Positions 3,346-63,930 of a stretch of DNA of 64,000 nucleotides are shown piece after piece. Under the pieces are notes generated by a model. That model was not told where the DNA came from, did no database searches, and saw only the letters and a list, made by a program, of their open reading frames with translations. The DNA lies in IMG/VR virus record IMGVR_UViG_3300042880_000852; one strand, written 5' to 3'. The position numbers were made by a program, and so were the translations under genes. Source of the DNA: a virus. Position 1 is the stretch's first letter. Each line of letters begins with the position of its first letter.

Positions 3346-3432
3346 ATGAACGTAGAAATAATATTAGCAATAAGCGTACCGATAGTTTTGTTCGGTGTGG
3401 GCATAGTAGTTAAGTTAAGGGATAAAAAGTAA
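3346..3432 (+). CDS. 28-aa hydrophobic micro-peptide (putative)
   Basis: MNVEIILAISVPIVLFGVGIVVKLRDKK, a single transmembrane-like helix; precedes the GC island. Confidence 0.25.
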   Translation: MNVEIILAISVPIVLFGVGIVVKLRDKK

Positions 3433-3580
3433 ACCTGACATATTGACAGGGTGGGCTAGACCCCATGGCCACCCCGCTGGGGTATGGCCCCCAGCTACCC
3501 TGCCGGTATCCCCCCTCCCCTAGGGAGAGCCCCCAGGGCCACAAAGGGGGGCTCGGTTCCGTTTTCAGATCTCGGGTTTG
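3433..3580. other. GC-rich (about 60-65%) island with nested palindromes
   Basis: ctgggg-tatggc-ccccag hairpin; CCCTAGGG palindrome; gagccccc/ggggggctc stem; C-tracts; very atypical for this genome. Confidence 0.3.
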
Positions 3581-3585
3581 CCAAT

Positions 3586-3673
3586 AAAAATTTTCCGGGA
3601 AAAATTCTCCCTAAAAATCGAGCGTATCCCCCATGTAATTCTAAAACCCCATAAAAAATTTCCGGAAAAATTT
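3586..3673 (+). promoter_or_regulatory. pair of near-palindromic operator-like sites, AAAAATTTTCCGGGAAAAATT and AAAAAATTTCCGGAAAAATTT
   Basis: two near-identical 21-mers (3586-3606 and 3653-3673) centred on TTCCGGAA, about 67 bp apart, upstream of TATATTTG (3695-3702) and ATG 3707. Confidence 0.4.
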
Positions 3674-4997: not shown

Positions 4998-5324
4998 ATG
5001 GAAAAAAATATAAAAATAGTTAGGCTAACTGAAAACGATTTGGAGCGTATGGTTAAAAAAATTATAAAAGAAGATTCAGTTGAGCTTACCACTGTTAGGC
5101 TAATTGATGATACTTATGATTTACTAACAACTTTGGGTTATGAATATGTTGAAGATTTATATATTCAGGATTTGTATGAGGCCGCAGAAGTATTGGAGGA
5201 TGAATTATATGATGGTGATCATGGTCCTAATATGAATAAAGAAATTGAAGATTTGTTAACAAACATTTATGAAATAATTGGTTATCCTGATGAGGCCGAA
5301 GATTGGGATGAATCTGAATATTAA
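4998..5324 (+). CDS. small acidic protein with conserved N-terminal leader (VRLTENDLERMVKKIIKED)
   Basis: N-terminus matches the leaders of ORFs 55865 and 63068; the leader ends in I-K-E (an I/L-x-E motif). Confidence 0.5.
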   Translation: MEKNIKIVRLTENDLERMVKKIIKEDSVELTTVRLIDDTYDLLTTLGYEYVEDLYIQDLYEAAEVLEDELYDGDHGPNMNKEIEDLLTNIYEIIGYPDEAEDWDESEY

Positions 5325-20406: not shown

Positions 20407-22083
20407 ATGAACATAATTTTAGAAAACATAAGAAAAGTTTTATTAGAAAACAGGGTTGATGATGTTAAGAAAAAATATCCTGAAGTTGACCCTGCTATTA
20501 TTGACTATTTTGTAAAAGAAGACCCGTCAGGTAACAACAAATATCTTGATTGGTTGGTTAAGGCTATGACCCATGGACCAACAATCCAATCTGTTGAAGA
20601 TATTTTGGATGAGGCTATGCAATTTAACACACCTCAAGAGTTTTTAATGATGTTGGTTAAAAAATTTCACGAATTATTACCTTATATGGTATATGTTGAA
20701 GATGGTAAGAAAGTTGGTACTACTGATTTGTATCAATATAAATTTACTGACAGTGAAATGATTAATTTTTTGGGTTTTGATTTATCTCAAGCAAAAGAAA
20801 GAAAAGACGAAAAGAATAAACAAAAAGACGCGAAGAAAAATTCTGATAAAATCTATGAAGATAAAAATTGGTTGGTAGTTAGACCAAAAAATTGGGAGTC
20901 TTCTTGTGTATATGGAGCCGGTACTAAGTGGTGTACAACATCCAAAGAAAATAGTTCACACTTTAAACGTGAAACTGACCGTAACTTTTTAATTTACGTA
21001 ATTAACAAAAATAAAACTTCTAAAGATACTGAATACAAGGTTGCTTGGCAAATTCCTTATACGAAAAAAGTAAATAAATACGTTACCTCAACACCAGGTA
21101 ACCCATCAGTTTGGACTTTAAATACCGATAAAATTAAATTATGGAATGCTGAGGATACTAATATAGCAAGTAGAGGTTCTTCTGGTTATGATTATTTAGA
21201 TACGGTTCCGGCCTCTGTTAAGGGGAATATTTTAAAATACATGCAAAGACAAATGGATGAAATGTATGCCAACATGGCTTACGTTGAAGATCCTTACACC
21301 CAAGCTTTGGTTGAGCATTTGGCTTTAAGTGAAGAAGAAGTTGAAGAGGTTGAACAAAGAGATTACGGTTATTACGGTATGCGTGTTTATACCGTAGACG
21401 GTAGTGATGATTATGCTGTAGCAACAACAGATGAGGTTGAGAGGGCGAAACACGAATGGGCGGAAAATTATATTAACGATTTAGGTATTTGGGAAGCTAT
21501 TGGTAATAATCCCGAAAAATACATTTATATTAACGACCCAAGGACTATAGCAAATGATATGGCTGAAAATTATATAGGGGATTTAAATGTAACTGACGAT
21601 ATATTACACGAAGGAAAAAGATTGGACAAAGAAACCAAAGCTATGGTTGAAGAATGGGAAGTTAATCAATCAATCATGGAAACTAATCAAGAAGATATTG
21701 ATGATATGATGGAAAGATATGGTGAATTAGATGAAGACGAAGAACAAGAATTGTCAGAATTAGAAATTGAAAATGAATCAATAGAAAAAACAAACGATAA
21801 ACTTTTACAATCTATTAAAGATAGAATTCGTGACGATTATTATGAAACTTATGTTACTCGTATGACAGACGACCCATTAGATTGGTTGGAAGAGTTTGGT
21901 TACTGGAGTAGTAAAACTGGTTTAGATAAATTTGCCATTAAAAACGGTTTGGTTGGTATTGACGAAACCGAATTAATTAATGATATGGCAGATGATTTAG
22001 ATTACGAATATTTTAGTAGGACTGGTAATTACGAGTATGTAAACATAGAAGGTGATAGATACTACATCTTCCCAACAGATTAA
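20407..22083 (+). CDS. paralog-family protein B (NKYLDWL ... YGAGTKWCTT core) with acidic C-terminal region
   Basis: core WLVVRPKNWESSCVYGAGTKWCTTSKENSSHFKRE...LIYVINK aligns with ORFs 11109, 43000 and 62206. Confidence 0.55.
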   Translation: MNIILENIRKVLLENRVDDVKKKYPEVDPAIIDYFVKEDPSGNNKYLDWLVKAMTHGPTIQSVEDILDEAMQFNTPQEFLMMLVKKFHELLPYMVYVEDGKKVGTTDLYQYKFTDSEMINFLGFDLSQAKERKDEKNKQKDAKKNSDKIYEDKNWLVVRPKNWESSCVYGAGTKWCTTSKENSSHFKRETDRNFLIYVINKNKTSKDTEYKVAWQIPYTKKVNKYVTSTPGNPSVWTLNTDKIKLWNAEDTNIASRGSSGYDYLDTVPASVKGNILKYMQRQMDEMYANMAYVEDPYTQALVEHLALSEEEVEEVEQRDYGYYGMRVYTVDGSDDYAVATTDEVERAKHEWAENYINDLGIWEAIGNNPEKYIYINDPRTIANDMAENYIGDLNVTDDILHEGKRLDKETKAMVEEWEVNQSIMETNQEDIDDMMERYGELDEDEEQELSELEIENESIEKTNDKLLQSIKDRIRDDYYETYVTRMTDDPLDWLEEFGYWSSKTGLDKFAIKNGLVGIDETELINDMADDLDYEYFSRTGNYEYVNIEGDRYYIFPTD

Positions 22084-33952: not shown

Positions 33953-34549
33953 TTACAATAATCTGTTTCTTTTGATATTACGATTAACCTTACTACAAAG
34001 TGGCTGTAAATTTGTGTAATGAAATAATTGTAATAACTCATCTTTAGTCTTTACCGAAGATAAGGGTGTGATATAATCTATATCCCAACCGTAATTTAAC
34101 TCACCGTTATATAAACCGTAATTATCCCAAGACATCCAATCTTCAAATTTAGATTCTAAATGTCTTTTAAAATCTTCAAATGAACAACCTAAAATTTGAT
34201 TTGCTTTTACTTGTGAAGTGTATTTTTTTCTTTTAAGACTTTGTTTAACCTGATTTTTTATTTTAATGGATAATTTAAACAAGGGATTATTTTTTCTTTT
34301 TAGTTTTTGATACTCTACACTATTTTTTACTATTTTTTCTTTATTACTTGAATAATACTTTTCCCAGTAATTTGAATTATTGTCCTTCCATAACTTATTA
34401 TATTCAGTCAACTTATCTTTATTTATTTTTTTATAAGTTTTTTGGTAATTTTTTCTTTTTTCTTTATATTCAGGGTCATTTTTTTTACTAAGATAATGTT
34501 GTTTTCTTTTTTCTAAAATATCTTTTTTATTTCTTTCGTAGTAAGTCAT
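33953..34549 (-). CDS. HNH-endonuclease-like protein, probably degenerate (paralog of 60612..61544)
   Basis: shares the lysine-rich repeat region and MSWDNYG...NLQPL with ORF 60612, but the HVDH catalytic site is replaced by DIDY. Confidence 0.45.
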   Translation of the reverse strand: MTYYERNKKDILEKRKQHYLSKKNDPEYKEKRKNYQKTYKKINKDKLTEYNKLWKDNNSNYWEKYYSSNKEKIVKNSVEYQKLKRKNNPLFKLSIKIKNQVKQSLKRKKYTSQVKANQILGCSFEDFKRHLESKFEDWMSWDNYGLYNGELNYGWDIDYITPLSSVKTKDELLQLFHYTNLQPLCSKVNRNIKRNRLL

Positions 34550-47735: not shown

Positions 47736-49661
47736 ATGGCCGACAATAAAGATTTAACAGTATATCAGAAATTATTTTACCTTTTTGGTCAAAATAAAAA
47801 ACCTGAAAGAACTACCCCAAAATATAGTTTTGGTGACGGTGATTTAATCACCATGCAATCAAAACAAGATTACGATAAACAAAAATTAGAATTACAACAA
47901 AAAAGTTATCTTGAGTCGCAATGGCAAAGAGTAGATAATGAACTTTATCAAAAAGCTGTTTACTATGAGACCTCAAGAATTGCTTCATATATGGATTATG
48001 AGGCTATGGAATTTACACCTGAAATTTCTGCCGCTTTAGATATTATGGCAGAAGAATCTTGTACACCAAGTGAACAAGGTAAAGTACTTACCATACAATC
48101 AAACTCTAAAAGAGTTAAAAATGTTTTAGAAGATTTATTTTACAACGTAGTTGATATTCAAACTAATTTACCAATGTGGACTCGTAATACATGTAAGTAT
48201 GGTGATAATTTTGTTTTCTTAAAAATTGATAATAAAAGAGGTATTATAGGTTCTTCACAATTAACTAATATTGAAATAGAACGTAAAGAAGAGGGTATGT
48301 TTCCTACACAAAAAGAAGGTAACACAACACCTATGCAAGAACAAAAGAAAAAACAAGTTATATTTCATTGGCGTGAAAAGGCCATGGATTTTAACCCATG
48401 GGAGATTGCACATTTTCGTTTATTAGGTGATGATAGACGTTTACCTTACGGTACTTCGGTGTTGGAAAAGGCTAGACGTATTTGGAAACAAATGTTATTA
48501 TCTGAAGATGCGATGTTAGTTTATCGTGTTGTTAGAGCACCTGAAAGACGTGTATTTAAAATTTATGTCGGTAACATTGATGATAAAGATGTTGATGCTT
48601 ATGTACAAAAAGTAGCTAATAAATTTAAAAGACAACAAATTGTTGACCAAAAAACAGGACAGGTTGATTTACGTTACAACACATTAGCTGTAGATCAAGA
48701 TTATTTCGTTCCTGTTCGTGACCCTAACGCACCAAACCCAATAGATACTTTGGCGGGTGCTAGTAATTTAGATCAAATTGCTGACATTGAGTATATTCAA
48801 AAGAAATTATTAACAGCGCTTAGAGTACCTAAAGCATTTTTAGGTTTTGATGAATCTCCTGGTGACGGTAAAAATTTAGCTTTATTAGATATTCGTTTCG
48901 CTAGAACAATTAATAGAATTCAACAATCTATGATTCAAGAATTGAATAAATTAGCTATTATTCATTTATTTATTTTAGGGTTTACTGATGATTTAAATAA
49001 TTTTACTTTAAATCTTACTAACCCATCTACTCAGGGTGAAATGTTAAAAGTTGAACAATGGAAAGAAAAAGTTCTTCTTTATAAAGATTTAGTGACTCAA
49101 GTTGATGGTGGTATAGCTCCTTCATCACATACTTGGGCTAAGAAAAATATTTTTAATTGGACCGATGAGGAAATTAAAACCGACCTTGAACAACAAATGA
49201 TGGAGAGAGCTGCATCTAAAGAATTAGAAAACACACCTGAAGTTGTTAAGAAAACAGGTTTCTTTGATAGGGTTACTAAACTTTATGGTGAAATTGGTGG
49301 ACCTACTCCTGCAGCTGGAGCTGAAGGTGGTGGGGTTGAAGAAGGTGGAGCTGAAGCTGGCGGTGGATTTGGTGGCGGAGGAGGATTTGGTGGTGGTGGC
49401 CTTGAACTAGGTGGTGGTGAAGAAATTGGTGGTGGAGCTGAAGTTGGTGAAGAAGGTGGTGAAGAAGGTGGTGGGGCTGAAACCGGATTTGGTGAAAGTT
49501 TTCGTTATAAAGACAAATCAATTATCGATAAGTTATTAATGGAGGGTAGAAGAAAAAATGAGGATATTATGATGATGACCGAAGGAATTAAAAATTTAAT
49601 AGGTGAAGAAGAAGAAAATAGTGACAAAGATTTAGATGACTTTAATTTATTACAAGATTAA
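47736..49661 (+). CDS. portal protein (gp20-like) with Gly/Glu-rich low-complexity C-terminal insertion
   Basis: position after terL; loose similarity to the T4 gp20 N-terminal region; (G)n-E tract encoded at about 49300-49500. Confidence 0.65.
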   Translation: MADNKDLTVYQKLFYLFGQNKKPERTTPKYSFGDGDLITMQSKQDYDKQKLELQQKSYLESQWQRVDNELYQKAVYYETSRIASYMDYEAMEFTPEISAALDIMAEESCTPSEQGKVLTIQSNSKRVKNVLEDLFYNVVDIQTNLPMWTRNTCKYGDNFVFLKIDNKRGIIGSSQLTNIEIERKEEGMFPTQKEGNTTPMQEQKKKQVIFHWREKAMDFNPWEIAHFRLLGDDRRLPYGTSVLEKARRIWKQMLLSEDAMLVYRVVRAPERRVFKIYVGNIDDKDVDAYVQKVANKFKRQQIVDQKTGQVDLRYNTLAVDQDYFVPVRDPNAPNPIDTLAGASNLDQIADIEYIQKKLLTALRVPKAFLGFDESPGDGKNLALLDIRFARTINRIQQSMIQELNKLAIIHLFILGFTDDLNNFTLNLTNPSTQGEMLKVEQWKEKVLLYKDLVTQVDGGIAPSSHTWAKKNIFNWTDEEIKTDLEQQMMERAASKELENTPEVVKKTGFFDRVTKLYGEIGGPTPAAGAEGGGVEEGGAEAGGGFGGGGGFGGGGLELGGGEEIGGGAEVGEEGGEEGGGAETGFGESFRYKDKSIIDKLLMEGRRKNEDIMMMTEGIKNLIGEEEENSDKDLDDFNLLQD

Positions 49662-51168: not shown

Positions 51169-52320
51169 ATGAGTAAAGTTTTTTTAGAATACATTTGGTT
51201 AGATGGTAATAGTCCCCAAAATCTAAGAAGTAAAACAAAAGTTGTTGACAGTACAGATATACTTGAAAGAGATGGTAATTCTAAACAAGGTTACCCTGAA
51301 TCCTATCCACTTTGGAGTTTCGATGGCAGTTCAACAAAACAAGCCGGTGAGGAATTTGGTTTTGATGGTACTGATTGTGTTTTAAAACCTGTCTGTGTTG
51401 TTAGTGACCCTTTTAGAAGTAAAAGTTCATCTTACCTTCACAAATTAGTTTTTTGTGAGGTTTTTAACCCTGACGGTAAAACACCACATAAAACAAACAC
51501 AAGAAGTAAGTTAAGGGATTTATTAGCCGACCTTAAATTCAAAGAGTATGACGCAAATCATTCAGAAGTTCCTTGGTTTGGGTGGGAACAAGAATACGTT
51601 ATAACACACGCTCCAGACCCGAATAACCATTTTAGGTATGGTGGAGGATTTCCTTTAGGTTTTTTAGCCGGTGATTCAGGTAAACCAAGACCACAAGGTG
51701 ATTACTACTGTGGTGTCGGTGGACTTAACGTTATTGGTAGAGACATTGTAGAAGAACATCTTACAAAATGTGCAGAAATAGGGTTAGATATAGGTGGAAT
51801 TAATGCCGAGGTATTGATAGGTCAATGGGAATATCAAATAGGCCCTGTGACTGCTTTAAACGGTTCTGACCAATTATGGATTTCACGTTACATACTTGAA
51901 AGAGTTGCTGAGAAAAAAGGTTTAGGAATTTCTTATCACCCAAAACCTGTTAACGGTGATTGGAATGGTAGTGGTTGTCACGTAAACTTTTCAACCAAAG
52001 AAATGAGAGAAAAAGGTGGAATTAAAAAAATTCTTGAATCATGTGATAAATTGTCTGAAAGACATAAAGAACATATTGAAGTTTACGGTGAGTTTAATGA
52101 AAAACGTTTAACTGGTAAACACGAAACATCTAGTATGGAAAAATTTAGTTTTGGTAATTCTGATAGAGGTTCAAGTATTAGAATACCTGTACATACATAT
52201 ACCAACGAAAGGGGTTATTTCGAAGATAGAAGGCCAGCGGCTAACTGTGACCCATACAAAGTTTCTAACGTAATGATTGAAACAGTATTTGATAAGGCTG
52301 GAATAACAGTGGAACAATAA
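51169..52320 (+). CDS. glnA: glutamine synthetase, type II-like
   Basis: N-terminal EYIWLDG beta-grasp motif; about 380 aa, typical of GS-II; catalytic-domain conservation (WFGWEQEY, GPCH-like region). Confidence 0.7.
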   Translation: MSKVFLEYIWLDGNSPQNLRSKTKVVDSTDILERDGNSKQGYPESYPLWSFDGSSTKQAGEEFGFDGTDCVLKPVCVVSDPFRSKSSSYLHKLVFCEVFNPDGKTPHKTNTRSKLRDLLADLKFKEYDANHSEVPWFGWEQEYVITHAPDPNNHFRYGGGFPLGFLAGDSGKPRPQGDYYCGVGGLNVIGRDIVEEHLTKCAEIGLDIGGINAEVLIGQWEYQIGPVTALNGSDQLWISRYILERVAEKKGLGISYHPKPVNGDWNGSGCHVNFSTKEMREKGGIKKILESCDKLSERHKEHIEVYGEFNEKRLTGKHETSSMEKFSFGNSDRGSSIRIPVHTYTNERGYFEDRRPAANCDPYKVSNVMIETVFDKAGITVEQ

Positions 52321-53494: not shown

Positions 53495-55027
53495 TTAAAT
53501 AGAAATTTCTTCTACTTTTCCTTCAACTTCAAAAGGATATATTGGAGACCATTCTGTAATATCGTTTGACATTACGGGTTTACCACCTTCCATTCTATTA
53601 ACAGCAATTGTAATATGTGGGATTTTATTTTGTGTTTTAATTTCGGATTCCACCTTAACAGCCACAACTTTGTCTGTTTGTCCTATATGAGTTACTAATA
53701 AATCAAAGGGTTGGTCTAAAAGAGGTTTAGACTCTTCTTTAAGTGGGCCCATATTGATGGTCATGTGATGCCCAATAAATTCCCAATCTTTTGGGTGCGG
53801 AATATATTTTTTTAATAGTTTTCTTGATTCTTCATTAAGAATTACGCCTGAATAACTTACCTTTTTTTTAGATTCATTCATAAGTTTTAAAAATTTTTCT
53901 TTTTCTATTCTTTCTTTTTCTTGGCCAATTTCACGACCTTTAAAACCTTTTTTTATTAGGTCATCACCTGAAGTTGTTATTTTATATTCTAAAAAAGTGT
54001 CTACAATTTTATTAGGTATTTTCATTAAGTTACTAAATGTTCTTAGTGTTTCTTCAGATATCCCGATAACTTCAAATCTTTCACGTAATTTATAAACATC
54101 TGTCCCGTATTGTAAAAACTTAATTAAGAAACTGATTTCTTTTACTTCATCAACTGTATACTTAAGCTTGTTAACTAATGTTTTTTCAACCAATGTAGGC
54201 TCGTTACTTTGTAGTAAAACAGCTATAAGTACGTTAGCCTCTTTAGTCTCAATTAAAGGTTCTGTTGTAACTACAAGTCTACCAAATATCCAGTCCCAAA
54301 GATTGTACTTAGTTATTAATTGTGTAAAATACCCTACAGACTGTGCTTGTTTAATACCTTTAAGAAATTCATCTCTAATACGTTCTTGTGATATTGGAAG
54401 TCCGTTACCACTAATAGTGGTTTTATCTTTACTTATAGCACTTTCAATGTCTTTATCCACATCGGAACCAACACGGGCGGCAAATCTAAGTGCTCTAAGT
54501 ACACGTAGTTTATCCTCATCGAAACGCTCTACTGCTGAACCAACTGTTCTAACCACGTTTCTTTCAATGTCACCAATACCACCAACCAAGTCAACCACTT
54601 CACCTTTATCTATATCATAGAAAAGAGCGTTGATGGTTAAATCACGACGCTTAACATCTTGGTCAATTGTAGTAAACTCTACAGAGTCAGGTCGTCTACC
54701 TTTACCAATGTCTTTACGGAAAGTAGCTATTTCATATTGACCATCTTCCGTGACTACGTTAACAATCCCAAATTGTTCACCCAATTCAATTGTACGGTAC
54801 ATGTTTAGAATAGACTTAATTTCTTCGGGTTTAGCGTTAGTAGCTAAATCAAAATCTTTAGGTTCATTACCATAAAGTAAATCCCGCACAGCACCACCAA
54901 CAACATATAACTCATAACCGTTTTCCTTGAAAATTTGGTTCATTTTCAATACGGAATTAGGTAGGTCCATGTGTATTTTCTTTCTTACCACTTCTTCTTT
55001 TAAGATTTTTCGAATCAGGTTCTTCAT
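53495..55027 (-). CDS. tRNA nucleotidyltransferase (CCA-adding / class II poly(A) polymerase head) fused to a C-terminal 2H phosphoesterase (LigT-like) domain; N-terminal leader MKNLIRKILKEE
   Basis: LYVVGGAVRDLL...DFDLAT head motif and RRDLTINAL; C-terminal paired H-x-T-x motifs GHHMTI and PHITIA typical of 2H phosphoesterases. Confidence 0.75.
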   Translation of the reverse strand: MKNLIRKILKEEVVRKKIHMDLPNSVLKMNQIFKENGYELYVVGGAVRDLLYGNEPKDFDLATNAKPEEIKSILNMYRTIELGEQFGIVNVVTEDGQYEIATFRKDIGKGRRPDSVEFTTIDQDVKRRDLTINALFYDIDKGEVVDLVGGIGDIERNVVRTVGSAVERFDEDKLRVLRALRFAARVGSDVDKDIESAISKDKTTISGNGLPISQERIRDEFLKGIKQAQSVGYFTQLITKYNLWDWIFGRLVVTTEPLIETKEANVLIAVLLQSNEPTLVEKTLVNKLKYTVDEVKEISFLIKFLQYGTDVYKLRERFEVIGISEETLRTFSNLMKIPNKIVDTFLEYKITTSGDDLIKKGFKGREIGQEKERIEKEKFLKLMNESKKKVSYSGVILNEESRKLLKKYIPHPKDWEFIGHHMTINMGPLKEESKPLLDQPFDLLVTHIGQTDKVVAVKVESEIKTQNKIPHITIAVNRMEGGKPVMSNDITEWSPIYPFEVEGKVEEISI

Positions 55028-55082
55028 ATAATGTAAATATATGAATTTATTGCATATTTATATAGAAAAACTTTTTATAAAA

Positions 55083-55868
55083 ATGAAAATTTTAAAATCT
55101 AACGAAACAGGTAAAGGTATCTTAGTCGAATATGACGCGGGTTATATTTCACCTGATATATCGTATAAAGGTACAAAAAATGCTGATTTAATTCGTGAAT
55201 TTAAATCAGGTACAAATATAGGAAAAGACGGTAGTCTACCAGACGTAGTTATTGTTTACGCAGTACTTCAAAAATGGGGTATTGAAAATAAAAACGGAAG
55301 ATTATACCCAAAAGAAATTCTTGAAAGAGAAAATACTAGATACCAAGAATATATTAAAATGGGTACATCTCTTGGTGAGTTAAACCACCCTGAATCTTCC
55401 ATCATTGATGCAGACAGAGTATCTCACAGAATTACTAAAACTTGGTGGGATGGTAAAACACTTATGGGTGAGATGGAATTGGATACAACTCCAGGATATC
55501 ACAAGTTAGGTGTTATTTCTTCGGTTGGTGATAAAGTTGTTAACATGATTAGAAAAGGTTGGACTGTTGGTATTTCATCTCGTGGTGTTGGATCACTTAA
55601 AGTTGAAAACGGTAAAAACGTAGTACAAGATGACTTTGAATTAATTTGTTGGGATATTGTAACATCTCCGTCAACCCCAGGTTCTTGGATTTCAACTGAC
55701 GCTGGTGATTTAAAAACATTTACAGAATCAACCCAAGGTTGTAACGGTTACTCTTGTCAATGGAACCTAATTGAAGAGGCCCCTAAAAAAGAAACTGTAA
55801 GTTTCAAAGATATCACTAACCATAATAGTGATAAATTATTAAACAGTTTAAATAAATTTTTAAAATGA
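55083..55868 (+). CDS. prohead protease (T4 gp21-like), putative
   Basis: LGELNHP...VSH...W.DG..L.G and ISSRGVGS region consistent with the prohead serine protease fold; head-module position; alternative start at 55041. Confidence 0.5.
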   Translation: MKILKSNETGKGILVEYDAGYISPDISYKGTKNADLIREFKSGTNIGKDGSLPDVVIVYAVLQKWGIENKNGRLYPKEILERENTRYQEYIKMGTSLGELNHPESSIIDADRVSHRITKTWWDGKTLMGEMELDTTPGYHKLGVISSVGDKVVNMIRKGWTVGISSRGVGSLKVENGKNVVQDDFELICWDIVTSPSTPGSWISTDAGDLKTFTESTQGCNGYSCQWNLIEEAPKKETVSFKDITNHNSDKLLNSLNKFLK

Positions 55869-56149
55869 GTAAAGTAGTTAGATTAAACGAAAAAGATATT
55901 GAAAGATTGGTTAGAAAAATCATGTCCGAAGATAAACAATCGAAGACGGTTGATATGAAAGGTAAGAAGTGTACCAATTGTAAAAAAGGTAAATACGGTG
56001 AAACATCACAACTTGACGATTTAGAAGGTGTACTTCATTGTACAAATTGTGGAAAAAAAACCGATAGATATGTAGATAAAACCGTAAAAGAATCTTGGCC
56101 AAAAAGAGAATTAGAAAGAAAAGTAATTAATTTCCGTAGAGATATTTAA
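55865..56149 (+). CDS. zinc-ribbon protein with N-terminal leader (VVRLNEKDIERLVRKIMSED)
   Basis: CTNCKKGK...CTNCGKK four-Cys ribbon; leader ends in I-M-S-E. Confidence 0.5.
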   Translation: MSKVVRLNEKDIERLVRKIMSEDKQSKTVDMKGKKCTNCKKGKYGETSQLDDLEGVLHCTNCGKKTDRYVDKTVKESWPKRELERKVINFRRDI

Positions 56150-56218
56150 ATTGCGCAGCTGCGCTTTTGCAAAAGCAGCTTAGCAAGCAGCAAAAGATCT
56201 AAAAAATTAAAAATGGAA

Positions 56219-56250
56219 GGGGATATGTAGTTTACATATCCCTTTTTTTT
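56219..56250 (+). terminator. intrinsic terminator
   Basis: ggatatgta-gtt-tacatatcc hairpin followed by T8; preceded by the palindromes GCGCAGCTGCGC and TTTTGCAAAA (56153-56174). Confidence 0.65.
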
Positions 56251-56288
56251 ATATAAAATTACCGTATAACAATTAAAATAATAAACAA

Positions 56289-56522
56289 ATGGATAATAAT
56301 GTAGCAAAATACTTTTTAGTAAAAGTAGAATTTGAAACCATTAATGAAAGTAATGGTAAACAGAAAAAAATTAGAACACAATATCTTGTGGATGCAATGA
56401 CTTGTACTGAGGCTGAAGCTCGTACTCGTACTTATTTAAAAGATTCTGTAATGGATTATGAAATTGTAAGTACAACAAAAAGTCCTATTGAAGACGTTAT
56501 TGAAGTACTTGTAAAGGCTTAA
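56289..56522 (+). CDS. hypothetical protein
   Basis: 77-aa ORF. Confidence 0.4.
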   Translation: MDNNVAKYFLVKVEFETINESNGKQKKIRTQYLVDAMTCTEAEARTRTYLKDSVMDYEIVSTTKSPIEDVIEVLVKA

Positions 56523-56998
56523 TGACGATATTGTTTTGGTAAACCTACTTTGTTAGCAACCTTTTGGAAAACCCCACCATGGTTTCTAGCTTCAGTATCT
56601 TCCAATCCGTGAGCGGCATGAATTAATTCGTGTTTAATAATATCTTCAACGTATTCAGTATCATTAAGGGCCTTGGGATGAATCTTCATTATTCCAAGGT
56701 CTTTTTTATTTTCAGGATGTTTAAATGAACCTATCTTTCCGGCTTTAATTTTATCATCCACTTTAACAACAATGTTATCGTCACTAACAGGTTCTTCACC
56801 TGTAATTTCTTTATAAGCTTTTTCTACCTTTTTTTTAATACGGTCCTTCATGTTGTCAACTTTTTTAGTTTCTTTTGGAAACTTGGAATTCTTTGTTGCC
56901 TTTTCCTGAGCATAGTCAACTTTTCTCATAAAATCATTCGATTCTAAATGATCCTCAATAAATTCTCGTAATATTTTTCTGATATTATTTCTCATCAT
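56519..56998 (-). CDS. SprT-like HExxH zinc-metallopeptidase-domain protein with N-terminal leader (MMRNNIRKILRE)
   Basis: HELIHAAHG...HGGVF motif; start chosen at the in-frame ATG 56998. Confidence 0.5.
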   Translation of the reverse strand: MMRNNIRKILREFIEDHLESNDFMRKVDYAQEKATKNSKFPKETKKVDNMKDRIKKKVEKAYKEITGEEPVSDDNIVVKVDDKIKAGKIGSFKHPENKKDLGIMKIHPKALNDTEYVEDIIKHELIHAAHGLEDTEARNHGGVFQKVANKVGLPKQYRH

Positions 56999-57134
56999 AA
57001 ATAAATATCCCAATTTTTTAATAAAAAAATTACTTTTTTCTCTTGACTTGTTGCACTTTACTGTAGGCAAACATATTTATTTAAAAATCTTGCATAAGTG
57101 TGCAAGATAAATTATAATTCGTTAAAAAATAAAA

Positions 57135-58685
57135 ATGAAAATGGCAAACGAAAAGAAATCAATTATTGAGGAAGCTCTTCTTGAAGCCGAGCAAATCGAC
57201 GCCGCTTTCAAATCTAACGCAAAAGAAATACTGTCTCAGACAATGAGTTCAGAAATTGAAGAAATGGTAAAGGAATCATTAACTGGTTCGAAAAAAAGAT
57301 TGAAGGAGGAAGATGAAGAGGAAGAAATGGATTTAGACCTTGAATTAGACACCGAAGAAGGTGAAGAAGAAGGGGAAGAATTCGAAGAAATGGATTTAGA
57401 TATGGACACCGAAGAAGGTGAAGAATCTGAAGACATGGATTTAGACATGGACATGGATACTGAAGACATGGGTATGGACTTAGATTTAGGCGATGAGTCT
57501 GAAGAAGGTTCTGAAATGGATTTAGATATGGATATGGACATGGAAAATGAACCGTCTGGTGAGGAAATGGAAACAGTAGACCTTACTAACGTTAGTGATG
57601 ATTCTAAATTAATCTCCGTTTTTAAAAAAATGGGCCCAGAAGATGAAATAGAAGTTGTTAACGATAACGGAATGGTTACATTAAAAGATAACAAATCTGG
57701 TTCTGAGTACAGAATCGAACTTAATTCAACTGGAGGAGTTTCTAACGTTGAGACTTCTGAAATTGAATTGGGTGAAGGTACTGAAGAATCTGGTCAAATT
57801 ATTTATGAAATCGTTGTGGATGATGAAGACGAAATGTCTGATTACATGATGGATTACGCATCTGATGAAGACGAAATGTCTGATTACATGATGGACTACG
57901 CATCTGATGAAGATAAAATGATGGACCATATGGATTACGCATCTGATGAAGATGAAATGTCTTCTTACATGGATTATAAGAAAAGTGGTTTAAAGAACCC
58001 AGGTAAAGCTGATTTAAATAAAGACCATGACATTACCCCTTACGAAAAGAAAAGAGGAATGGCAATCGAAAAATCTATGGCCGGTAAAGATGATGAAGAT
58101 GAAATGTCTTATATGTCTAGAAGAGTAACTACTAAAGGTAGATACGCTACTGGAAATAGAACAAACACTAATGCCATTAACAGAATGGGTGGTGCTGAAT
58201 CTTATAAGTCTACTTACGGAATGTCTGAATCAAAAACTCCACAGATTACAAAACTCATCAAAGAAAATACAAATTTAAATACAAAATTAACATCTATTGA
58301 AAGTGAAAATACTGAATTAAAAGATACTCAAGAAAAAATGGTTGAGGCTCTTAAACAATTCAGAAAGAAACTTCAAGAGGTGGCTGTCTTTAACAGCAAT
58401 CTTACTTACGCTGTAAGATTATTCACTGAAAACTCTACTACAAAAGAAGAAAAACAAGAAATTTTAAAAAGATTAGATTCGGCTAAAGATTTAAAAGAAT
58501 CTCAATCAATTTATAAACAACTTGTTAAAGAATACACCAACGGTAAAGCTACTATTAAGGAATCTATCGAAGAGAAAATTAACAAGACTGCTTCTAGTGG
58601 GGCACAAATTAGTGAATCAAGCGTATTTGTACACCCTGAGTTACAAAACATGAAAAAACTTTGGGAGTACTCATATAAAAAATAA
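57135..58685 (+). CDS. acidic scaffold / prohead core protein (gp22-like position) with tandem repeats
   Basis: extreme Asp/Glu content; MDLD and DEDEMSDYMMDYASDE tandem repeats; immediately upstream of the major capsid gene. Confidence 0.55.
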   Translation: MKMANEKKSIIEEALLEAEQIDAAFKSNAKEILSQTMSSEIEEMVKESLTGSKKRLKEEDEEEEMDLDLELDTEEGEEEGEEFEEMDLDMDTEEGEESEDMDLDMDMDTEDMGMDLDLGDESEEGSEMDLDMDMDMENEPSGEEMETVDLTNVSDDSKLISVFKKMGPEDEIEVVNDNGMVTLKDNKSGSEYRIELNSTGGVSNVETSEIELGEGTEESGQIIYEIVVDDEDEMSDYMMDYASDEDEMSDYMMDYASDEDKMMDHMDYASDEDEMSSYMDYKKSGLKNPGKADLNKDHDITPYEKKRGMAIEKSMAGKDDEDEMSYMSRRVTTKGRYATGNRTNTNAINRMGGAESYKSTYGMSESKTPQITKLIKENTNLNTKLTSIESENTELKDTQEKMVEALKQFRKKLQEVAVFNSNLTYAVRLFTENSTTKEEKQEILKRLDSAKDLKESQSIYKQLVKEYTNGKATIKESIEEKINKTASSGAQISESSVFVHPELQNMKKLWEYSYKK

Positions 58686-58719: not shown

Positions 58720-60516
58720 ATGGGATATTTATTAAAATCAGGTGAGGTTGGTAATATCGGATTAAAGCACCAAAAAGCTATCCGTGAGGCAACTGTAAAC
58801 AAATGGGAATCTTTAGGATTCTTAGAAGGCTTAGAAGGCCATATCAGAGAAAACATCGCTTTGTTATATGAAAACCAAGCGTCAGTTCTTATCAATGAAA
58901 CTACCACTGCTGGTGGTGTTGGTACACAAGGAAGTTCTTCTGGTTCTTTCGAAACAGTTGTATTTCCTATCGTAAGACGTGTGTTCTCTAAATTATTAGC
59001 TAACGACATCGTTTCTGTACAAGCATTAAACTTACCTATCGGTAAATTATTCTACTTCGTACCTAAACGTTCTGAGAGAATTGATGATTCAGCTTTCTTG
59101 GCAGGTACAAATGGTGGTACATCTAAACATGGTGAGCCTATCGTTACAACTTGTGTTGATGCAGCTAGTAACTGTGATTTAACATCATACAGTGCTTGTT
59201 TAAAGAATCTTTATGATGCTTTCTACAATGACGGTCTTTTTGATCAATCAAAAGGTATGATAACTTTAAAAGTTGTTACAGGTTCTACTTGTGTAGTATG
59301 GACAGCTTGTACTAATGGATTTGAATTTGGTGCAGGAAAAACTCCAGCAGCAACTGATGGTTCATTACGTCACCAAATTATTGAAGTTACAGGATTTAAT
59401 TCAACCGGTGCTGGTCGTTTAATCACTCCAGACGGTAATGAAATGGATACTGAATCTTTCTTAGCATCTTTAACTGTTTCTGCAACTGCAAACATTCTTG
59501 ACCCAGCTGGTCAAACAATTTACAGTAACGGTGATTCAATTCCTTTCCGTGTGGTAACACAAAAATATGGTAAAGGTATTGTTCAGTACGGTGATATCTG
59601 TACAGCTGATGGTAAACTTTATATTGAAGTTGACTTAACTCACCCAACTTGTGTAACTTGTGGTACTAACACATTTGATGGTTACATTGGAGCTGATTAT
59701 ACTGGAACTACTTGTTCTGAAATCGCTGGTTTCATTTCTTGGAGACAATACTCTGACCTTGAAGCTGAATCAGAAATGGGAGAAGTTTCTTTCGAACTTC
59801 AATCTGTAACTGTATCTGTTACTGAAAGAAAATTAAGAGCTACTTGGACTCCTGAATTAGCACAAGACGTTAGTGCATTCCACAACATCGATGCTGAAGC
59901 TGAATTAACAGCATTATTATCTGAGCAAGTTGCAGCTGAAATTGACCGTGAAATCTTAATCGATTTACGTAAAGGTGCAGCATGGCAATTACGTTGGGAT
60001 TACAACGGTTGGAAGCGTTTACCAAACAACAATGGTTACACTCAAAAAGATTGGAACCAAACTTTGATGACAGCTATCAACCAAATCTCAGCTCAAATCC
60101 ATAAATCTACATTAAGAGGTGGAGCTAACTTTATCGTTGTATCTTCTGAGGTATCAGCAGTATTCGATGATTTAGAATATTTCCACGTATCTAACGCAGC
60201 TCCTGAGCAAGATCAGTATAACATGGGTATTGAAAGAGTAGGTTCATTAAGTGGACGTTACACTGTATACCGTGACCCTTACGCTCCAGCATATTCAGTT
60301 ATCATTGGACACAAAGGTAAGTCATTGTTAGACACTGGTTACATCTACGCTCCATACGTACCGATGCAGTTAACACCTACAATGTACAATCCGTTTAACT
60401 TCGTACCTGTTAAAGGTATCATGACTCGTTACGCTAAAAAAATGGTGAACAACCGCTTTTACGGCCATATCAGAGTTGACGGTTTACGTACTTTTGATGT
60501 TAGAGAATTACGTTAA
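58720..60516 (+). CDS. major capsid protein (T4 gp23-like)
   Basis: FPIVRRVFSKLLANDIVSVQALNLPIGKLFY resembles the T4 gp23 region MVRRAIPNLIAFDICGVQPMNSPTGQVFAL; N-terminal propeptide ends VLINE (an I-x-E motif). Confidence 0.85.
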   Translation: MGYLLKSGEVGNIGLKHQKAIREATVNKWESLGFLEGLEGHIRENIALLYENQASVLINETTTAGGVGTQGSSSGSFETVVFPIVRRVFSKLLANDIVSVQALNLPIGKLFYFVPKRSERIDDSAFLAGTNGGTSKHGEPIVTTCVDAASNCDLTSYSACLKNLYDAFYNDGLFDQSKGMITLKVVTGSTCVVWTACTNGFEFGAGKTPAATDGSLRHQIIEVTGFNSTGAGRLITPDGNEMDTESFLASLTVSATANILDPAGQTIYSNGDSIPFRVVTQKYGKGIVQYGDICTADGKLYIEVDLTHPTCVTCGTNTFDGYIGADYTGTTCSEIAGFISWRQYSDLEAESEMGEVSFELQSVTVSVTERKLRATWTPELAQDVSAFHNIDAEAELTALLSEQVAAEIDREILIDLRKGAAWQLRWDYNGWKRLPNNNGYTQKDWNQTLMTAINQISAQIHKSTLRGGANFIVVSSEVSAVFDDLEYFHVSNAAPEQDQYNMGIERVGSLSGRYTVYRDPYAPAYSVIIGHKGKSLLDTGYIYAPYVPMQLTPTMYNPFNFVPVKGIMTRYAKKMVNNRFYGHIRVDGLRTFDVRELR

Positions 60517-60611: not shown

Positions 60612-61544
60612 ATGGGAAAGAAAAGAATTGAAATACCTGAAGATGTTTTATTAGAAATGGTAAGATTATATAATGAAGAATATGTTGGTACCCCATCATT
60701 GTCAGATAGATTTGGTTACCATAAATCTATTATATTAAGAAGTTTTAAAAACAAAGGTGTTGTCTTAGGTCCATCTGGTCGTAAATGGACTGGTGGTAGA
60801 GAGATTGCTGATAAAAAATGGAGAGAAAAAAATAAAGAAAAATTATCCGAATATCATAAAGAATGGTCAGAAAAAAACCGAGAATATTTACGTGAATATC
60901 ATGCCAAATGGCGTGAAGTAAATCGTGAATCATTAAACGAATATAAAAGACATTACGAAAAAACCAAAAAAGATTCTGACCCAGCTTATAAATTGGCTTG
61001 TTACACCAGAACTGCCATCTATACTTGTTTAAAAGAAAGAAATGTTGATAAATATAAAAATACTTTTGATTTATTACCTTATACGTTGGAAGAGCTGATT
61101 CAACATTTGGAACTTAGATTTCAAGAAGGTATGTCGTGGGATAATTATGGAAGATGGCATGTTGATCACATTAAACCAATGGTTTCTTTTAATATTAAAG
61201 AACCGACTGATAAAGAATTTCAAGATTGTTGGTCTTTAAGTAATTTACAACCATTATGGGAACAAGATAATTTATCCAAAGGTGGTAGATATTTATATTA
61301 TATGCCAAAGAACTATATACCATACGATCTAGCCTTAAAATTGAATGAAAAGGGTTATAATGTATCCACTCATGCTTATTATAACATCTATAATAAACAT
61401 ATATTTATTCACACACCTGTCAATCATAATGAAGCTATATGGGCACCAACTTTTGGTGAGACTATTGATTGGTTCAAAGAAAATTACGATATTGATGTAC
61501 AACCAAATGTAGAATCTATTGAAGAGGCTTTGAATAAAATATGA
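60612..61544 (+). CDS. HNH homing endonuclease
   Basis: HVDHIKP...NLQPLWEQDNLSKG HNH motif; Lys/Glu/Tyr-rich repeat region; classic position after the capsid gene. Confidence 0.6.
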   Translation: MGKKRIEIPEDVLLEMVRLYNEEYVGTPSLSDRFGYHKSIILRSFKNKGVVLGPSGRKWTGGREIADKKWREKNKEKLSEYHKEWSEKNREYLREYHAKWREVNRESLNEYKRHYEKTKKDSDPAYKLACYTRTAIYTCLKERNVDKYKNTFDLLPYTLEELIQHLELRFQEGMSWDNYGRWHVDHIKPMVSFNIKEPTDKEFQDCWSLSNLQPLWEQDNLSKGGRYLYYMPKNYIPYDLALKLNEKGYNVSTHAYYNIYNKHIFIHTPVNHNEAIWAPTFGETIDWFKENYDIDVQPNVESIEEALNKI

Positions 61545-61858
61545 AAGATTTAATTCTTAAAATACTAAAAGAATCGGAAGATGAATTTGATTGGATTGAG
61601 TCACCTTTCGGTATTGACGATAATCTAATGAACTATCTAATCCAAAATTACCGTGTTGGGGAATATAATGACATGGCAAAAGAGTTCTTAGGTGATAAAT
61701 ACGTGATGGTTGATGATAAAATGTATCCACTTGAAGGCCATAAAAAACAATTAACTAATAAAATCTATTGGGAGGTTGTTGATGAATTTCCTAACATGAA
61801 CCAACCTGTTTTAAGAAGAACAATTAAAACTTTTTTAAACAATATCACTAGTAACTAA
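61541..61858 (+). CDS. hypothetical protein with N-terminal leader (MKDLILKILKESEDEFDW); paralog of 63544..63930
   Basis: N-terminus nearly identical to MKHLIRKILKESDFDW of ORF 63544(-). Confidence 0.45.
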   Translation: MKDLILKILKESEDEFDWIESPFGIDDNLMNYLIQNYRVGEYNDMAKEFLGDKYVMVDDKMYPLEGHKKQLTNKIYWEVVDEFPNMNQPVLRRTIKTFLNNITSN

Positions 61859-62205: not shown

Positions 62206-62964
62206 TTAACCTTTATAAGTATCGTCTTTGATGCCTCTTTCTTTAGCAATTTCCTTATTGGTCTTACCTTTAAGAGTTGTATTAACCACTTTCATAACAT
62301 CTTGTGGTATAATCTCCATTAATTCCATCATACCTACAGCTGTAACTGGAATATCTTTAGAATCCCAAATTGTGGTTGCTGAATGACCTGTTTTGGTTTT
62401 GTCATAGTGAAAAGCCACCTTAGAAAAGATGTTATCACGAGTTTGTTCTTCTTTGATTGATTTGTCAATCACAAACACAAGAACACCATTCTCAGTGTAT
62501 TGGTTAAAATACTTTTTAAAGTCATTTTGGTCGGAAGAAACACACCACTTAGTTGACTTACCGTAAACATTAGAACTACGAGAAGTAAGTGGTTGGAGTA
62601 CTACAAATCTGTCGTCTTCGTGTACAGTAATAGTTTCAAATTTCTTAACTTGACTCTTAGTCACTTTTTCACGTGCCAATTTAATTGTGTCAACAATTTC
62701 TTGGTTAGAACCATAAGAGTAGATATCTTTATTTTCTAAAAGATTTTTATCAGAAAGTTCTTCAAATTCTTTTACAATATCAAACATTTCTTTAAATGTA
62801 TTTGACTTTAATTCTTCTTTAAGCCAATCCACCCAAGATTCTGCTTGTTTAACCATAAACGGTAAGTATTTATTAGTACTTGAAGGATCATTTTTAGCCA
62901 AAATTTCAACTAAATCAATAACAAATTTTGGGTTCTGTTCTTTAAGGTCTTTCTTTTTTGCCAT
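62206..62964 (-). CDS. paralog-family protein D (TNKYLPFMV ... YGKSTKWCVSS core), shortest member
   Basis: core FVVLQPLTSRSSNVYGKSTKWCVSSDQNDFKKY...LVFVIDK aligns with ORFs 11109, 20407 and 43000. Confidence 0.5.
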   Translation of the reverse strand: MAKKKDLKEQNPKFVIDLVEILAKNDPSSTNKYLPFMVKQAESWVDWLKEELKSNTFKEMFDIVKEFEELSDKNLLENKDIYSYGSNQEIVDTIKLAREKVTKSQVKKFETITVHEDDRFVVLQPLTSRSSNVYGKSTKWCVSSDQNDFKKYFNQYTENGVLVFVIDKSIKEEQTRDNIFSKVAFHYDKTKTGHSATTIWDSKDIPVTAVGMMELMEIIPQDVMKVVNTTLKGKTNKEIAKERGIKDDTYKG

Positions 62965-63067: not shown

Positions 63068-63490
63068 ATGAAAGTAGTTAGACTAAACGAAAACGATATA
63101 GAAAATTTGGTTAAAAAAATTATCAAAGAAGATGAGGGTCAAATGAAGCCTTCGGAACCAAAAGAAAAATCACTTGTATTATTAAAAACTAATAATGGTG
63201 AATTATCTACGGTTGATGAAATTGTTAGAGCAATTCAACACGCTAAAATAGCTTTTGAAGATTTGTGTAACTCTAAGTTAACTGGTAAAGACGGTTATTC
63301 TAGAGAAATTGATGGTATTGTAAATGACTTTACAAAACTAGAAGATAAAGTTCGTAAATCAAAAGAAACTATCGGCAAATTTGTTCAACAAAAAGGTAAA
63401 CAAGACCATATGGCTTATATGAAAAAAAGAAAAATGGATTATATGGCAAACCAAGAAAAAGCACGTAAGAGAGGTAGTTACTACGCATAA
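63068..63490 (+). CDS. hypothetical protein with N-terminal leader (VVRLNENDIENLVKKIIKEDE)
   Basis: leader matches ORFs 4998 and 55865. Confidence 0.45.
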   Translation: MKVVRLNENDIENLVKKIIKEDEGQMKPSEPKEKSLVLLKTNNGELSTVDEIVRAIQHAKIAFEDLCNSKLTGKDGYSREIDGIVNDFTKLEDKVRKSKETIGKFVQQKGKQDHMAYMKKRKMDYMANQEKARKRGSYYA

Positions 63491-63543: not shown

Positions 63544-63930
63544 TTATGAGTATGGTGGTCCTGGATTAGAACCCCTTACTTTAATATTTTCCGGATCAAA
63601 TACGTTAAATCTTTTCCAAGCGTATGGGTTTATTGACATTTTTAAGTAATCTAAAGCCCAATCGATATCATCACCTTCTTGAAATGACATACCTCGCCAA
63701 CGTGTAATGTCTCCGATGGCGTTTCTAATATTTTGTTTACTCGGATTTCTTTTTATATTTTCGATTGCATTACCTATCTCATCATCTTCTTGATAGGCAT
63801 AACCCTTCCATTCTTCAAACCCTTTAATACCGTCTTCAACCCAAGGCCAATAAACATTGTTAGGTAAACCCAATTCGTCAACCCAATCAAAATCACTTTC
63901 TTTTAATATTTTTCTAATTAAATGTTTCAT
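63544..63930 (-). CDS. hypothetical protein with N-terminal leader (MKHLIRKILKESDFDW)
   Basis: leader family member; paralog of ORF 61541. Confidence 0.45.
   Translation of the reverse strand: MKHLIRKILKESDFDWVDELGLPNNVYWPWVEDGIKGFEEWKGYAYQEDDEIGNAIENIKRNPSKQNIRNAIGDITRWRGMSFQEGDDIDWALDYLKMSINPYAWKRFNVFDPENIKVRGSNPGPPYS

Follow-up and report, generated by a model that had tools for sequence, protein, structure and literature searches.

A short leader peptide on unrelated proteins of an uncultured T4-like phage, a candidate capsid-targeting propeptide

Here, we analysed a 64,000-nucleotide stretch of DNA (the window; IMG/VR virus record IMGVR_UViG_3300042880_000852; 30% GC) from an uncultured T4-like phage, in which seven genes, judged by sequence comparison, carry a common leader peptide on cargoes that are otherwise unrelated. 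The short form of the leader (~11 residues, MKxLIRKILKE) opens a CCA-adding/2H phosphoesterase enzyme, a SprT-like protein and the proteins of genes 61541 and 63544, and the long form (~22 residues, (V)VRL(N/T)ExD(I/L)ExLVKKIIKE) opens those of genes 4998, 55865 and 63068 (genes are named by their lowest coordinate). These leaders end in ILKE, ILRE, IIKE or IMSE, the last with Met at P3, the third residue before the proposed cut. The strict core [LMI][IV][RK]K[IV][ILM][KSR]E matched the six-frame translation of the window five times, always within the first 25 residues of real open reading frames (ORFs). The cargo parts of the seven carriers showed no BLAST similarity to each other, except for a short 'DFDW' motif which directly follows the leader in 61541 and 63544.

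Membership was scored with two profile hidden Markov models (HMMs), a long-form model trained on non-window loci only (best internal background 3.3 bits) and a short-form model that includes window seeds (background 4 bits or less). A first-pass annotation of the same DNA had placed the leader on about 10 unrelated proteins (roughly 10-14 were listed); seven of these were recovered at 15-30 bits, and the rest fell to background, apart from the borderline 20407. Its short variant survived in the CCA enzyme, the SprT-like protein, 61541 and 63544 (18-22 bits) and lost 33616 (0-3 bits), whose 'leader' starts at an internal Met (33948), while its long variant kept 4998, 55865 and 63068 (15.1-29.5 bits) without 17634 (1.6 bits). 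The looser members did not stand: 12504 gave no match, three of four paralogs were at background (11109 at 3.0 bits and 43000 at 3 bits or less among them), and only 20407 reached a borderline 7.7 bits. A further weak look-alike, 50484 (MIKTESENLVKLRQIVKEIE), which that annotation lacked, scored 3 bits or less as well. The paralogs form a four-member family (11109-12497, 20407-22083, 43000-45771 (+), 62206-62964 (-)) with a 'DPSG.NKY' region and matches to unknown PHROGs, and their relationship was confirmed.

The SprT-like protein matched the SprT-like Pfam family (E=8e-6), and for its gene 56998 (MMRNNIRKILRE) is the most likely start; the TTG codon at 57070, given in the ORF list, is an unlikely one. 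The short leaders of its orthologs in the related loci L001, L002 and L043 have diverged with the h-h-x-E end retained, and the 63068 ortholog in L043 also retains its leader. Small long-leader proteins are encoded in L001 and L002 ~3 kb upstream of the major capsid protein (MCP) gene, a distance similar to that of 55865; BLAST similarity between them and the 55865 cargo was not detected.

Table 1. Leaders and head genes of the window (P1 motif, ATATTTA class)
Feature	Position	Strand	Evidence
TerL (large terminase)	45820-47649	+	upstream of portal; PHROG match (portal and TerL: phrog_213 E=3e-61, phrog_2 E=1e-46); P1 motif upstream
Portal	47736..49661	+	PHROG match (portal and TerL: phrog_213 E=3e-61, phrog_2 E=1e-46); P1 motif upstream
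gp21-like prohead (head maturation) serine protease	55041/55083..55868	+	phrog_207 E=1.3e-40; P1 motif 29 nt 5' of Met at 55083
Acidic scaffold-like protein	57135..58685	+	516 aa; 26.6% Asp+Glu; pI 4.2; between protease and MCP
gp23-like MCP	gene 58720-60516	+	phrog_138 E=4e-63
Predicted MCP propeptide	58720..58899	+	L-I-N-E end at residue 60
Short leader MKNLIRKILKE, CCA-adding/2H phosphoesterase enzyme (gene 53495-55027)	54995..55027	-	short-form HMM 20.0 bits
Short leader MMRNNIRKILRE, SprT-like protein (gene 56519-56998)	56963..56998	-	short-form HMM 20.9 bits; P1 motif 10 nt upstream
Short leader MKDLILKILKE, 105-aa protein (61541-61858)	61541..61573	+	short-form HMM 18.1 bits
Short leader MKHLIRKILKE, 128-aa 'DFDW' protein (63544-63930)	63898..63930	-	short-form HMM 22.0 bits
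Long leader MEKNIKIVRLTENDLERMVKKIIKE, 108-aa protein (4998-5324)	4998..5072	+	independent HMM 29.5 bits; P1 motif 28 nt upstream
Long leader MSKVVRLNEKDIERLVRKIMSE, 94-aa Cys-rich (zinc-ribbon-like) protein (55865-56149)	55865..55930	+	independent HMM 15.1 bits; overlaps protease stop codon
Long leader MKVVRLNENDIENLVKKIIKE, 140-aa protein (63068-63490)	63068..63130	+	independent HMM 21.9 bits; P1 motif 23 nt upstream
Borderline leader-like N-terminus MNIILENIRKVLLE, paralog-family protein	20407..20448	+	7.7 bits

The window encodes its head genes in the order known from T4 (portal, protease, scaffold, gp23-like MCP), and the gp21-like protease, the acidic scaffold and the gp23-like MCP with its LINE end, which had been read from the letters in the first pass, were all confirmed. 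The protease, which has homologs in 67 related loci, is the sole protease identified in the window and adjoins three leader genes; by analogy with T4, we propose it as the enzyme that processes the leaders. The acidic scaffold-like protein holds a 110-aa stretch of 49% Asp+Glu and is kept in 78 loci. A PHROG search with it returned no match, and its position in the protease-MCP interval is like that of T4 gp22. In the MCP of 55 relatives, 'LYENQAS.L[IL]NE' followed by [AST]T is conserved where the T4 gp23 propeptide site lies. A protein encoded 3' of the MCP in relatives (M..LNQIIKKVLSE|ATSDSGG...) was tried as a gp24-like vertex protein, and so as a positive control, and rejected, as it is not MCP-like and found no match in Pfam.

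By MCP, the closest deposited phages are a 484-kb uncultured phage, Microcystis phage Mel-JY01 and Flavobacterium phage immuto, each ~40% identical, while IMG/VR holds at least 598 relatives closer than these, on contigs reaching 345 kb. The CCA protein of the window recurs in 100%-identical copies on 60 public contigs, the longest of 105 kb. Given the 30% GC and that the nearest cultured relative infects Flavobacterium, the hosts are probably Bacteroidota.

The spread of the leader was then followed in a relatives set made up of the window and 168 further loci (2.58 Mb), scanned with the two HMMs. This gave 259 leader copies, of which 250 stood at the N-terminus, 7 inside the protein and 2 at the C-terminus. 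Unique proteins with an N-terminal copy numbered 190 (median 142 aa) and fell into 142 cargo clusters without detectable similarity, so that the search of related phages which the first-pass annotation had suggested as a check did find the same leader on unlike proteins. In a profile search of 5.8 billion proteins, 1,918 matches were listed, all of 79 aa or less, with the consensus MKK[IV][IV]RLTESDLTRIVKRVI[NKS]E[QDE]. HMMER, run exhaustively over 1.84 billion cluster representatives, yielded 8,802 clusters at E<=1e-3 (1,390 at E<=1e-10), and in ~135 of the top 150 the leader started at residue 1-4. Among 185,579 bacterial and archaeal genomes (596 Gb), there were 27 pattern matches, of which 5 were confirmed, all in metagenome-assembled genomes (MAGs) and four on short contigs, against at least 600 matches in IMG/VR with the same patterns. 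On this sequence evidence, the leader is phage-specific and nearly absent from bacterial and archaeal genomes. Core genes of this phage clade lay within 10 kb in 32 of the 78 loci fetched by the leader alone, and two copies of an extended variant, MKKVIRLTENDIHRIVKNSVKRILRE, lie on a different viral contig with T4-type SbcCD, primase and sigma-factor genes. A tblastn search of cultured and deposited phages with the bare 23-24 aa leader gave no match at E<=10, a query too short to be informative, and a literature search for the motif strings found no paper containing them in the library searched. At one end of a 72-kb Bacteroidales MAG contig (L090 1-1600), we observed two divergent AT-rich genes with the leader-like N-termini MKKVIRLTESDIHRIVKNSVKKVLTE and MNTLDNIIKESIDNIINE beside GC-richer bacterial genes; the second (MNTLDNIIKESIDNIINE) looks by eye like a phosphoribosyltransferase, and the pair may come from an integrated element or from chimerism in assembly or binning.

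To describe the cargoes, we scanned 57 cargo representatives against Pfam, which identified PG_binding_1 twice, a Tae4 amidase, an alpha/beta hydrolase and, weakly, SLT; nearly all of the 57 were ORFans. Cell-wall-active domains, as are typical for virion proteins that are ejected, are among those of the few identifiable cargoes, and several cargoes have, by eye, long hydrophobic stretches suggestive of membrane segments. Among the 57 representatives, no replication enzymes were found, and a signal peptide stood in front of none. Two further conserved leader-bearing families, not in the window, were seen in relatives on the downstream or upstream side of the MCP gene (e.g. L042 3450, L048 7105, L050 7757(-)). 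The first, with the sequence 'WFG.KKKPKGS.QPKGPWVNIC...', is a basic protein rich in Cys that carries a leader at each end, and the second a 'RYMFFSN...YPSAYANGHAVQVCKG' protein; since members of the latter bear either the long or the short leader, the two forms are interchangeable.

We further studied whether the leader is conserved as DNA or as peptide, using 155 unique leader-coding DNAs from the relatives. The entropy at codon positions 1, 2 and 3 was 0.70, 0.45 and 1.15 bits, and 41% of the identical residues between pairs were encoded by different synonymous codons; four different codons occur for the invariant Leu, and every one of the four Thr codons for the near-invariant Thr. In contrast with this variable coding, the residues themselves are retained (L4 in 154/155, E6 in 155/155, D8 in 151/155 and E19 in 154/155). 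The leader copies of the window likewise differ in their synonymous codons and in their upstream regions. A DNA repeat or recombination element was rejected on these differences, and because synonymous codons differ between copies, the leader is not a DNA repeat. It is selected at the protein level.

The conserved peptide has a sharp end. The fit of the leader ends to the (L/I)-x-E consensus, noticed in the first pass, was borne out in the relatives, where the terminal Glu is present in 154/155 leaders and P3 is I, L or V in 153/155, with a further invariant L-T-E upstream. The invariant residues make up L-T-E and I-x-E, two motifs of the L/I-x-E type with a spacing of 13 residues. The leaders end in V-[IL]-[NKS]-E, and the MCP site reads L-[IL]-N-E. 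Past the terminal Glu, conservation stops abruptly and the sequences diverge completely; P1' is hydrophobic in merely 3% of carriers and P2'-P5' are polar. The leader is basic (net charge +3) and amphipathic, the long form with a strand-plus-helix pattern. In its consensus, MKKIIRLTESDLTRIVKRVINE, charged residues recur at intervals of 2-4 positions, and the uninterrupted hydrophobic core of ~7-15 residues after a basic N-region, by which Sec, Tat and lipoprotein signal peptides are recognized, is absent from the leader. Neither a GG/GA motif nor modification or export genes with short cargo, the marks of double-glycine leaders and of ribosomally synthesized and post-translationally modified peptides (RiPPs), were found; the leader ends in Glu, its cargo reaches 510 aa, and no RiPP-type modification or export Pfam domains were found among the neighbours of the leader array in L081.

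The CCA protein allowed the leader to be compared with and without its cargo. Its PolyA_pol head domain is clear (E=9e-37), and because the C-terminal domain shows two H-x-T motifs in alignment and a weak match to the tRNA-ligase cyclic phosphodiesterase domain, the protein is suggested to be a tRNA 3'-end repair enzyme. CCA enzymes in the PDB align from residue 20-28 onward only, leaving the first ~19 residues without a counterpart, and an alternative in-frame start, Met20, is used by some gene callers. An AlphaFold2 model of the protein (mean pLDDT, the predicted local confidence, 89.8) fell below 50 for residues 1-9 and to 43 for residues 1-10, against 88-96 after these, and the leader is accordingly predicted to be exposed and unpacked on the enzyme. 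Among orthologs, a leader-like N-terminus persists to ~50% identity, and leaderless orthologs (P0207, P0209, P0215) begin exactly at the leader boundary; the start of P0207, MKEVRIKHK, aligns where its siblings read ...ILKEEKEVRVKH. In other CCA enzymes (P0176, P0181-P0190; 642-769 aa), the leader is followed by one or two inserted 'DFDW' domains, a remnant 'KLKEE' and then the enzyme, and the inserted domains resemble window genes 63544 and 61541. By these alignments, the leader is a module of the protein that can be acquired, lost or relocated, and such natural modularity is consistent with a leader that would by itself suffice for targeting.

Two promoter-like motif classes were distinguished in the window. 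The first, ATATTTA, shows a 10.8-fold enrichment in front of genes and lies 10-30 nt before the ATG of TerL, 49688, the protease and several tail-region genes, 45 nt before that of the portal and 62 nt before that of the scaffold; ATATTTA(T) sites include 55028-55082, between the CCA gene and the protease, and sites upstream of 45820, 47736, 49688 and 57135. It is found upstream of the leader genes 4998, 63068, CCA and SprT-like, and of the weaker candidates 17634, 20407, 11109 and 43000 too. The remaining robust leader genes lie in ATATTTA transcription units, except 63544, whose upstream gene is outside the window; the start of 61541 overlaps the stop of an endonuclease-like gene which is itself preceded by the motif. 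The Bacteroidota-type TAnnTTTG precedes a DNA ligase, a RecA/KaiC-like ATPase, a glucosaminidase, small early-looking genes and the paralog 62206, often exactly 12 nt 5' of the ATG (upstream of 14605(-), 23727(-), 26528(-) and 62206(-)). Within the paralog family, ATATTTA was observed upstream of the three members with a leader-like N-terminal extension and TAnnTTTG upstream of the extension-less 62206. In the relatives, ATATTTA precedes 107/194 leader genes versus 482/1452 control ORFs (odds ratio 2.5, p=6e-9), 47/61 protease genes and 14/14 scaffold genes, while TAnnTTTG is depleted at leader genes (6/194 versus 131/1452, p=0.003). From sequence, the two classes look like a late/early split, and the leader genes share the promoter class of the head genes.

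Taken together, we lean towards reading the leader as a T4-like capsid-targeting, removable propeptide, which by analogy is somewhat more probable than improbable, and all computationally testable predictions of this idea held. We infer docking on the scaffold, cleavage, packaging and ejection as its steps. The leader genes would be transcribed from the promoter class of the head genes, and the basic amphipathic leader would dock its cargo onto the acidic scaffolding core, with the scaffold-like protein as presumed partner, as the prohead assembles. Once the shell is closed, the gp21-like protease would cut after the invariant terminal Glu, and in the long form a second cut after the upstream L-T-E is probable, by which the leader would be broken into small peptides. 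The freed cargo would stay inside the capsid and be delivered with the DNA at the next infection. A wider picture, in which a whole clade of uncultured T4-like phages, often of jumbo size (up to ~320-345 kb), would load a large and rapidly evolving protein set into the capsid by a single 22-residue 'zip code' present on at least 8,800 clusters, with cell-wall enzymes, membrane proteins, a metalloprotease and the CCA-adding/2H enzyme among the cargoes and all injected with the DNA, is one that we put forward tentatively and hold to be somewhat less probable than not.

Several points weigh against capsid targeting. The nearest cultured phage, immuto (MCP 40% identical), has degenerate look-alikes only. 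The leader is basic and has no sequence similarity to the capsid-targeting sequence (CTS) of T4, which is slightly acidic. An h-h-x-E motif is expected in an amphipathic helix of like composition, and the motif match alone is therefore weak. In relatives, the surroundings of the MCP gene show no enrichment of leader genes, and with up to 8 carriers in 20 kb and thousands of families the leader far exceeds the handful known from T4. ATATTTA also precedes many non-head genes (33% of control ORFs, and a third of all long ORFs), so co-expression discriminates only weakly. To our knowledge, a CCA-adding tRNA repair enzyme is not among the known virion proteins, and one leader-bearing relative (L128) has a second CCA-like enzyme without a leader; packaging of the CCA/2H enzyme would be a new and speculative idea. 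As for immuto itself, its gp071 (L085 16592-17690), just upstream of the protease, is acidic, stands at the prohead-core position and contains an internal LIKKVLSE equal to the leader core; further immuto genes start with degenerate look-alikes, e.g. MKKSQLRQIIKEAL. Around the MCP in 80 relatives we counted 2.5 leader ORFs per 100 kb, with the arrays of up to 8 per 20 kb lying elsewhere, and clustering of leader genes at the head module, which holds in the window, was therefore rejected as a general trait.

The positions of the leader also count against a simple N-terminal propeptide. Some copies lie inside proteins or at the very C-terminus, two or three are present in many of the best-scoring database proteins, and mini-proteins of 55-61 aa (P0001, P0002) consist of little beyond two leaders; such multi-position copies suit an autonomous binding module at least as well. 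Among P0263-P0336, many proteins combine an N-terminal with internal or C-terminal copies, up to three in all. The leader could accordingly be an autonomous docking or self-association helix which gathers accessory proteins on some other structure (a takeover hub, a membrane, nucleic acid or a bundle of leaders), with neither packaging nor removal. This is the rival that survives best, and we regard it as rather unlikely. Besides the positional freedom, it would account for the basic, amphipathic character with net charge +3 and for the very numerous carriers, mostly small ORFans. However, it leaves unexplained the stop of conservation at an invariant Glu before a polar, non-hydrophobic residue, the two L/I-x-E motifs among the invariant residues, and the head-gene promoter class with host-type promoters depleted. 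Moreover, the internal copies retain the 'KK' of MKK and for this reason look like fusions of neighbouring leader genes, which the cleavage-site model tolerates as polyproteins.

The sharp boundary at the invariant Glu, followed by a polar linker, and the exposed, unpacked leader of the AlphaFold2 model would also fit a regulatory degron or processing signal for a host or phage protease outside the capsid, timing the activity or lifetime of accessory proteins. We consider this improbable: a precedent for such a shared phage degron was not found, the window yielded a single identified protease, the prohead one beside three leader genes, and expression with the late head genes argues against early regulatory turnover. 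A nucleic-acid-level element, such as a translation-initiation enhancer or a recombination homology patch with the peptide incidental, is very improbable. Leaders do stand at the 5' ends of genes whose hyperplastic arrays hold as many as 8 members per 20 kb, domains and genes are shuffled exactly at the leader boundary, and an AT-rich, Lys-codon-rich stretch follows the ATG. Against it, third codon positions are the most variable, with four Thr and four Leu codons and 41% synonymous differences, upstream regions are unconserved beyond the promoter motif, and the peptide is retained in internal and C-terminal copies; the leader DNA may still have a secondary role as recombination homology. That the leaders have no common function and reflect generic amphipathic-helix composition, the objection raised in the first pass itself, or common ancestry of whole proteins has next to no chance: although the looser members 17634, 12504, 33616 and the paralogs are at background and 61541 and 63544 share slight sequence past the leader, it is contradicted for the seven members by independent HMM scores of 15-30 bits versus a 3-bit background, by near-invariant residues over 155 genes, by a strict N-terminal position, and by 142 unrelated cargo clusters in the relatives and 8,802 clusters in the protein universe.

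Other features of the window are recorded here in their own right. A glutamine-synthetase-like gene (51169-52320 (+); Gln-synt_C E=8e-18, Gln-synt_N E=1e-6) lies between portal and protease in the head module. Paralogous endonuclease VII/HNH-like genes are present at 60612-61544 (+) and 33953-34549 (-), and many relatives have such a copy directly 3' of the MCP in the style of a homing-endonuclease insertion (e.g. L001 11872-12588, L026 11974-12675). These homing-endonuclease-like genes (60612, 33953) were considered as carriers of leader cassettes and rejected, their adjacency in relatives being inconsistent. GC-rich patches at 920-1400 and 3400-3600 (43-48% and up to 68% GC) contain no convincing ORF; patch 3395-3600 folded no better than shuffles (z=0.63), and tRNA and Rfam scans of the window found none.

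If the capsid-targeting reading is true, one could list from sequence alone which proteins a large group of uncultured environmental phages packages and injects. The tagged proteins would then probably be anti-defence and host-takeover factors, and with thousands of cargo families against T4's handful they would be a rich source of new effectors. The leader would also offer a ready-made tag to load foreign proteins into Bacteroidota phages, and tRNA repair, pre-packaged and ready to work as soon as infection begins, would be a new kind of counter-defence. Should the capsid idea prove wrong, the leader is still among the most widespread short protein motifs of phage metagenomes, and one without a described function so far.

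The closest known counterpart is found in T4. Its protease gp21 recognizes L/I-x-E and cuts after Glu (PMC9026906), and its CTS, MKTYQEFIAE, is a 10-residue leader on unrelated, hypervariable internal proteins which is removed by gp21 and is sufficient to load foreign proteins (PMC8442874, PMC9026906, PMC3012670, PMC5694885); Alt carries propeptides at both ends (PMC9026906). Like the CTS of IPI, IPII and IPIII and the propeptides of Alt and gp24, the leader is a short N-terminal peptide on unrelated accessory proteins with an L/I-x-E end (PMC9026906, PMC3012670, PMC8442874). Cargo plasticity is high in both. However, a direct comparison of the leader with the T4 CTS found only Met-Lys and the terminal Glu in common and opposite net charges, and any relationship would be a functional analogy, homology not being demonstrated. 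The leader has 11 or 22 residues rather than 10, its long form contains two tandem L/I-x-E motifs in a strand-plus-helix pattern unlike the CTS, and it also occurs internally and C-terminally. Its cargo families number in the thousands and its genes reach 8 per 20 kb, where the CTS marks a handful.

Encapsulin cargo-loading peptides provide a second comparison, being short conserved terminal tags, at either terminus and transferable, that bring diverse enzymes into an HK97-fold shell. In contrast to the viral leader, these are usually C-terminal, rich in Gly, Pro and hydrophobic residues, bind the shell directly, are not known to be cleaved or to involve a scaffold or protease, and are cellular. 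RiPP and double-glycine bacteriocin leaders resemble the phage leader as a conserved helical N-terminus followed by a hypervariable short sequence, and many database matches are 30-80 aa. They differ in their GG/GA motif, which the phage leader lacks, and the latter has cargo that includes 500-aa enzymes and folded domains; RiPP modifying enzymes or transporters were not seen adjacent to leader arrays, and the tag was restricted to lytic-type phage contigs.

Among giant phages, phiKZ, 201phi2-1 and SPN3US have many head-internal proteins that are cut after Glu by a gp21-related protease at a minimal 3-residue motif (PMC5694885, PMC9026906). Their propeptides are thought to target the prohead, redundant internal cleavage sites occur, and some ejected proteins have transmembrane segments (PMC5694885, PMC9026906). 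These propeptides are mostly longer than 100 residues with S/A-x-E, whereas the leader is short with L/I-x-E. Nor do they form one sequence across unrelated proteins, identical N-termini being limited to the paralogs gp53 and gp54, whereas the leader follows one consensus. In our searches, the CTS literature concerned T4, P1 and phiKZ-like phages only. By analogy, the leader would work like the T4 CTS and the ejection propeptides of giant phages without being sequence-homologous to either, and it differs from them in length, charge, double motif, positional freedom and, chiefly, scale.

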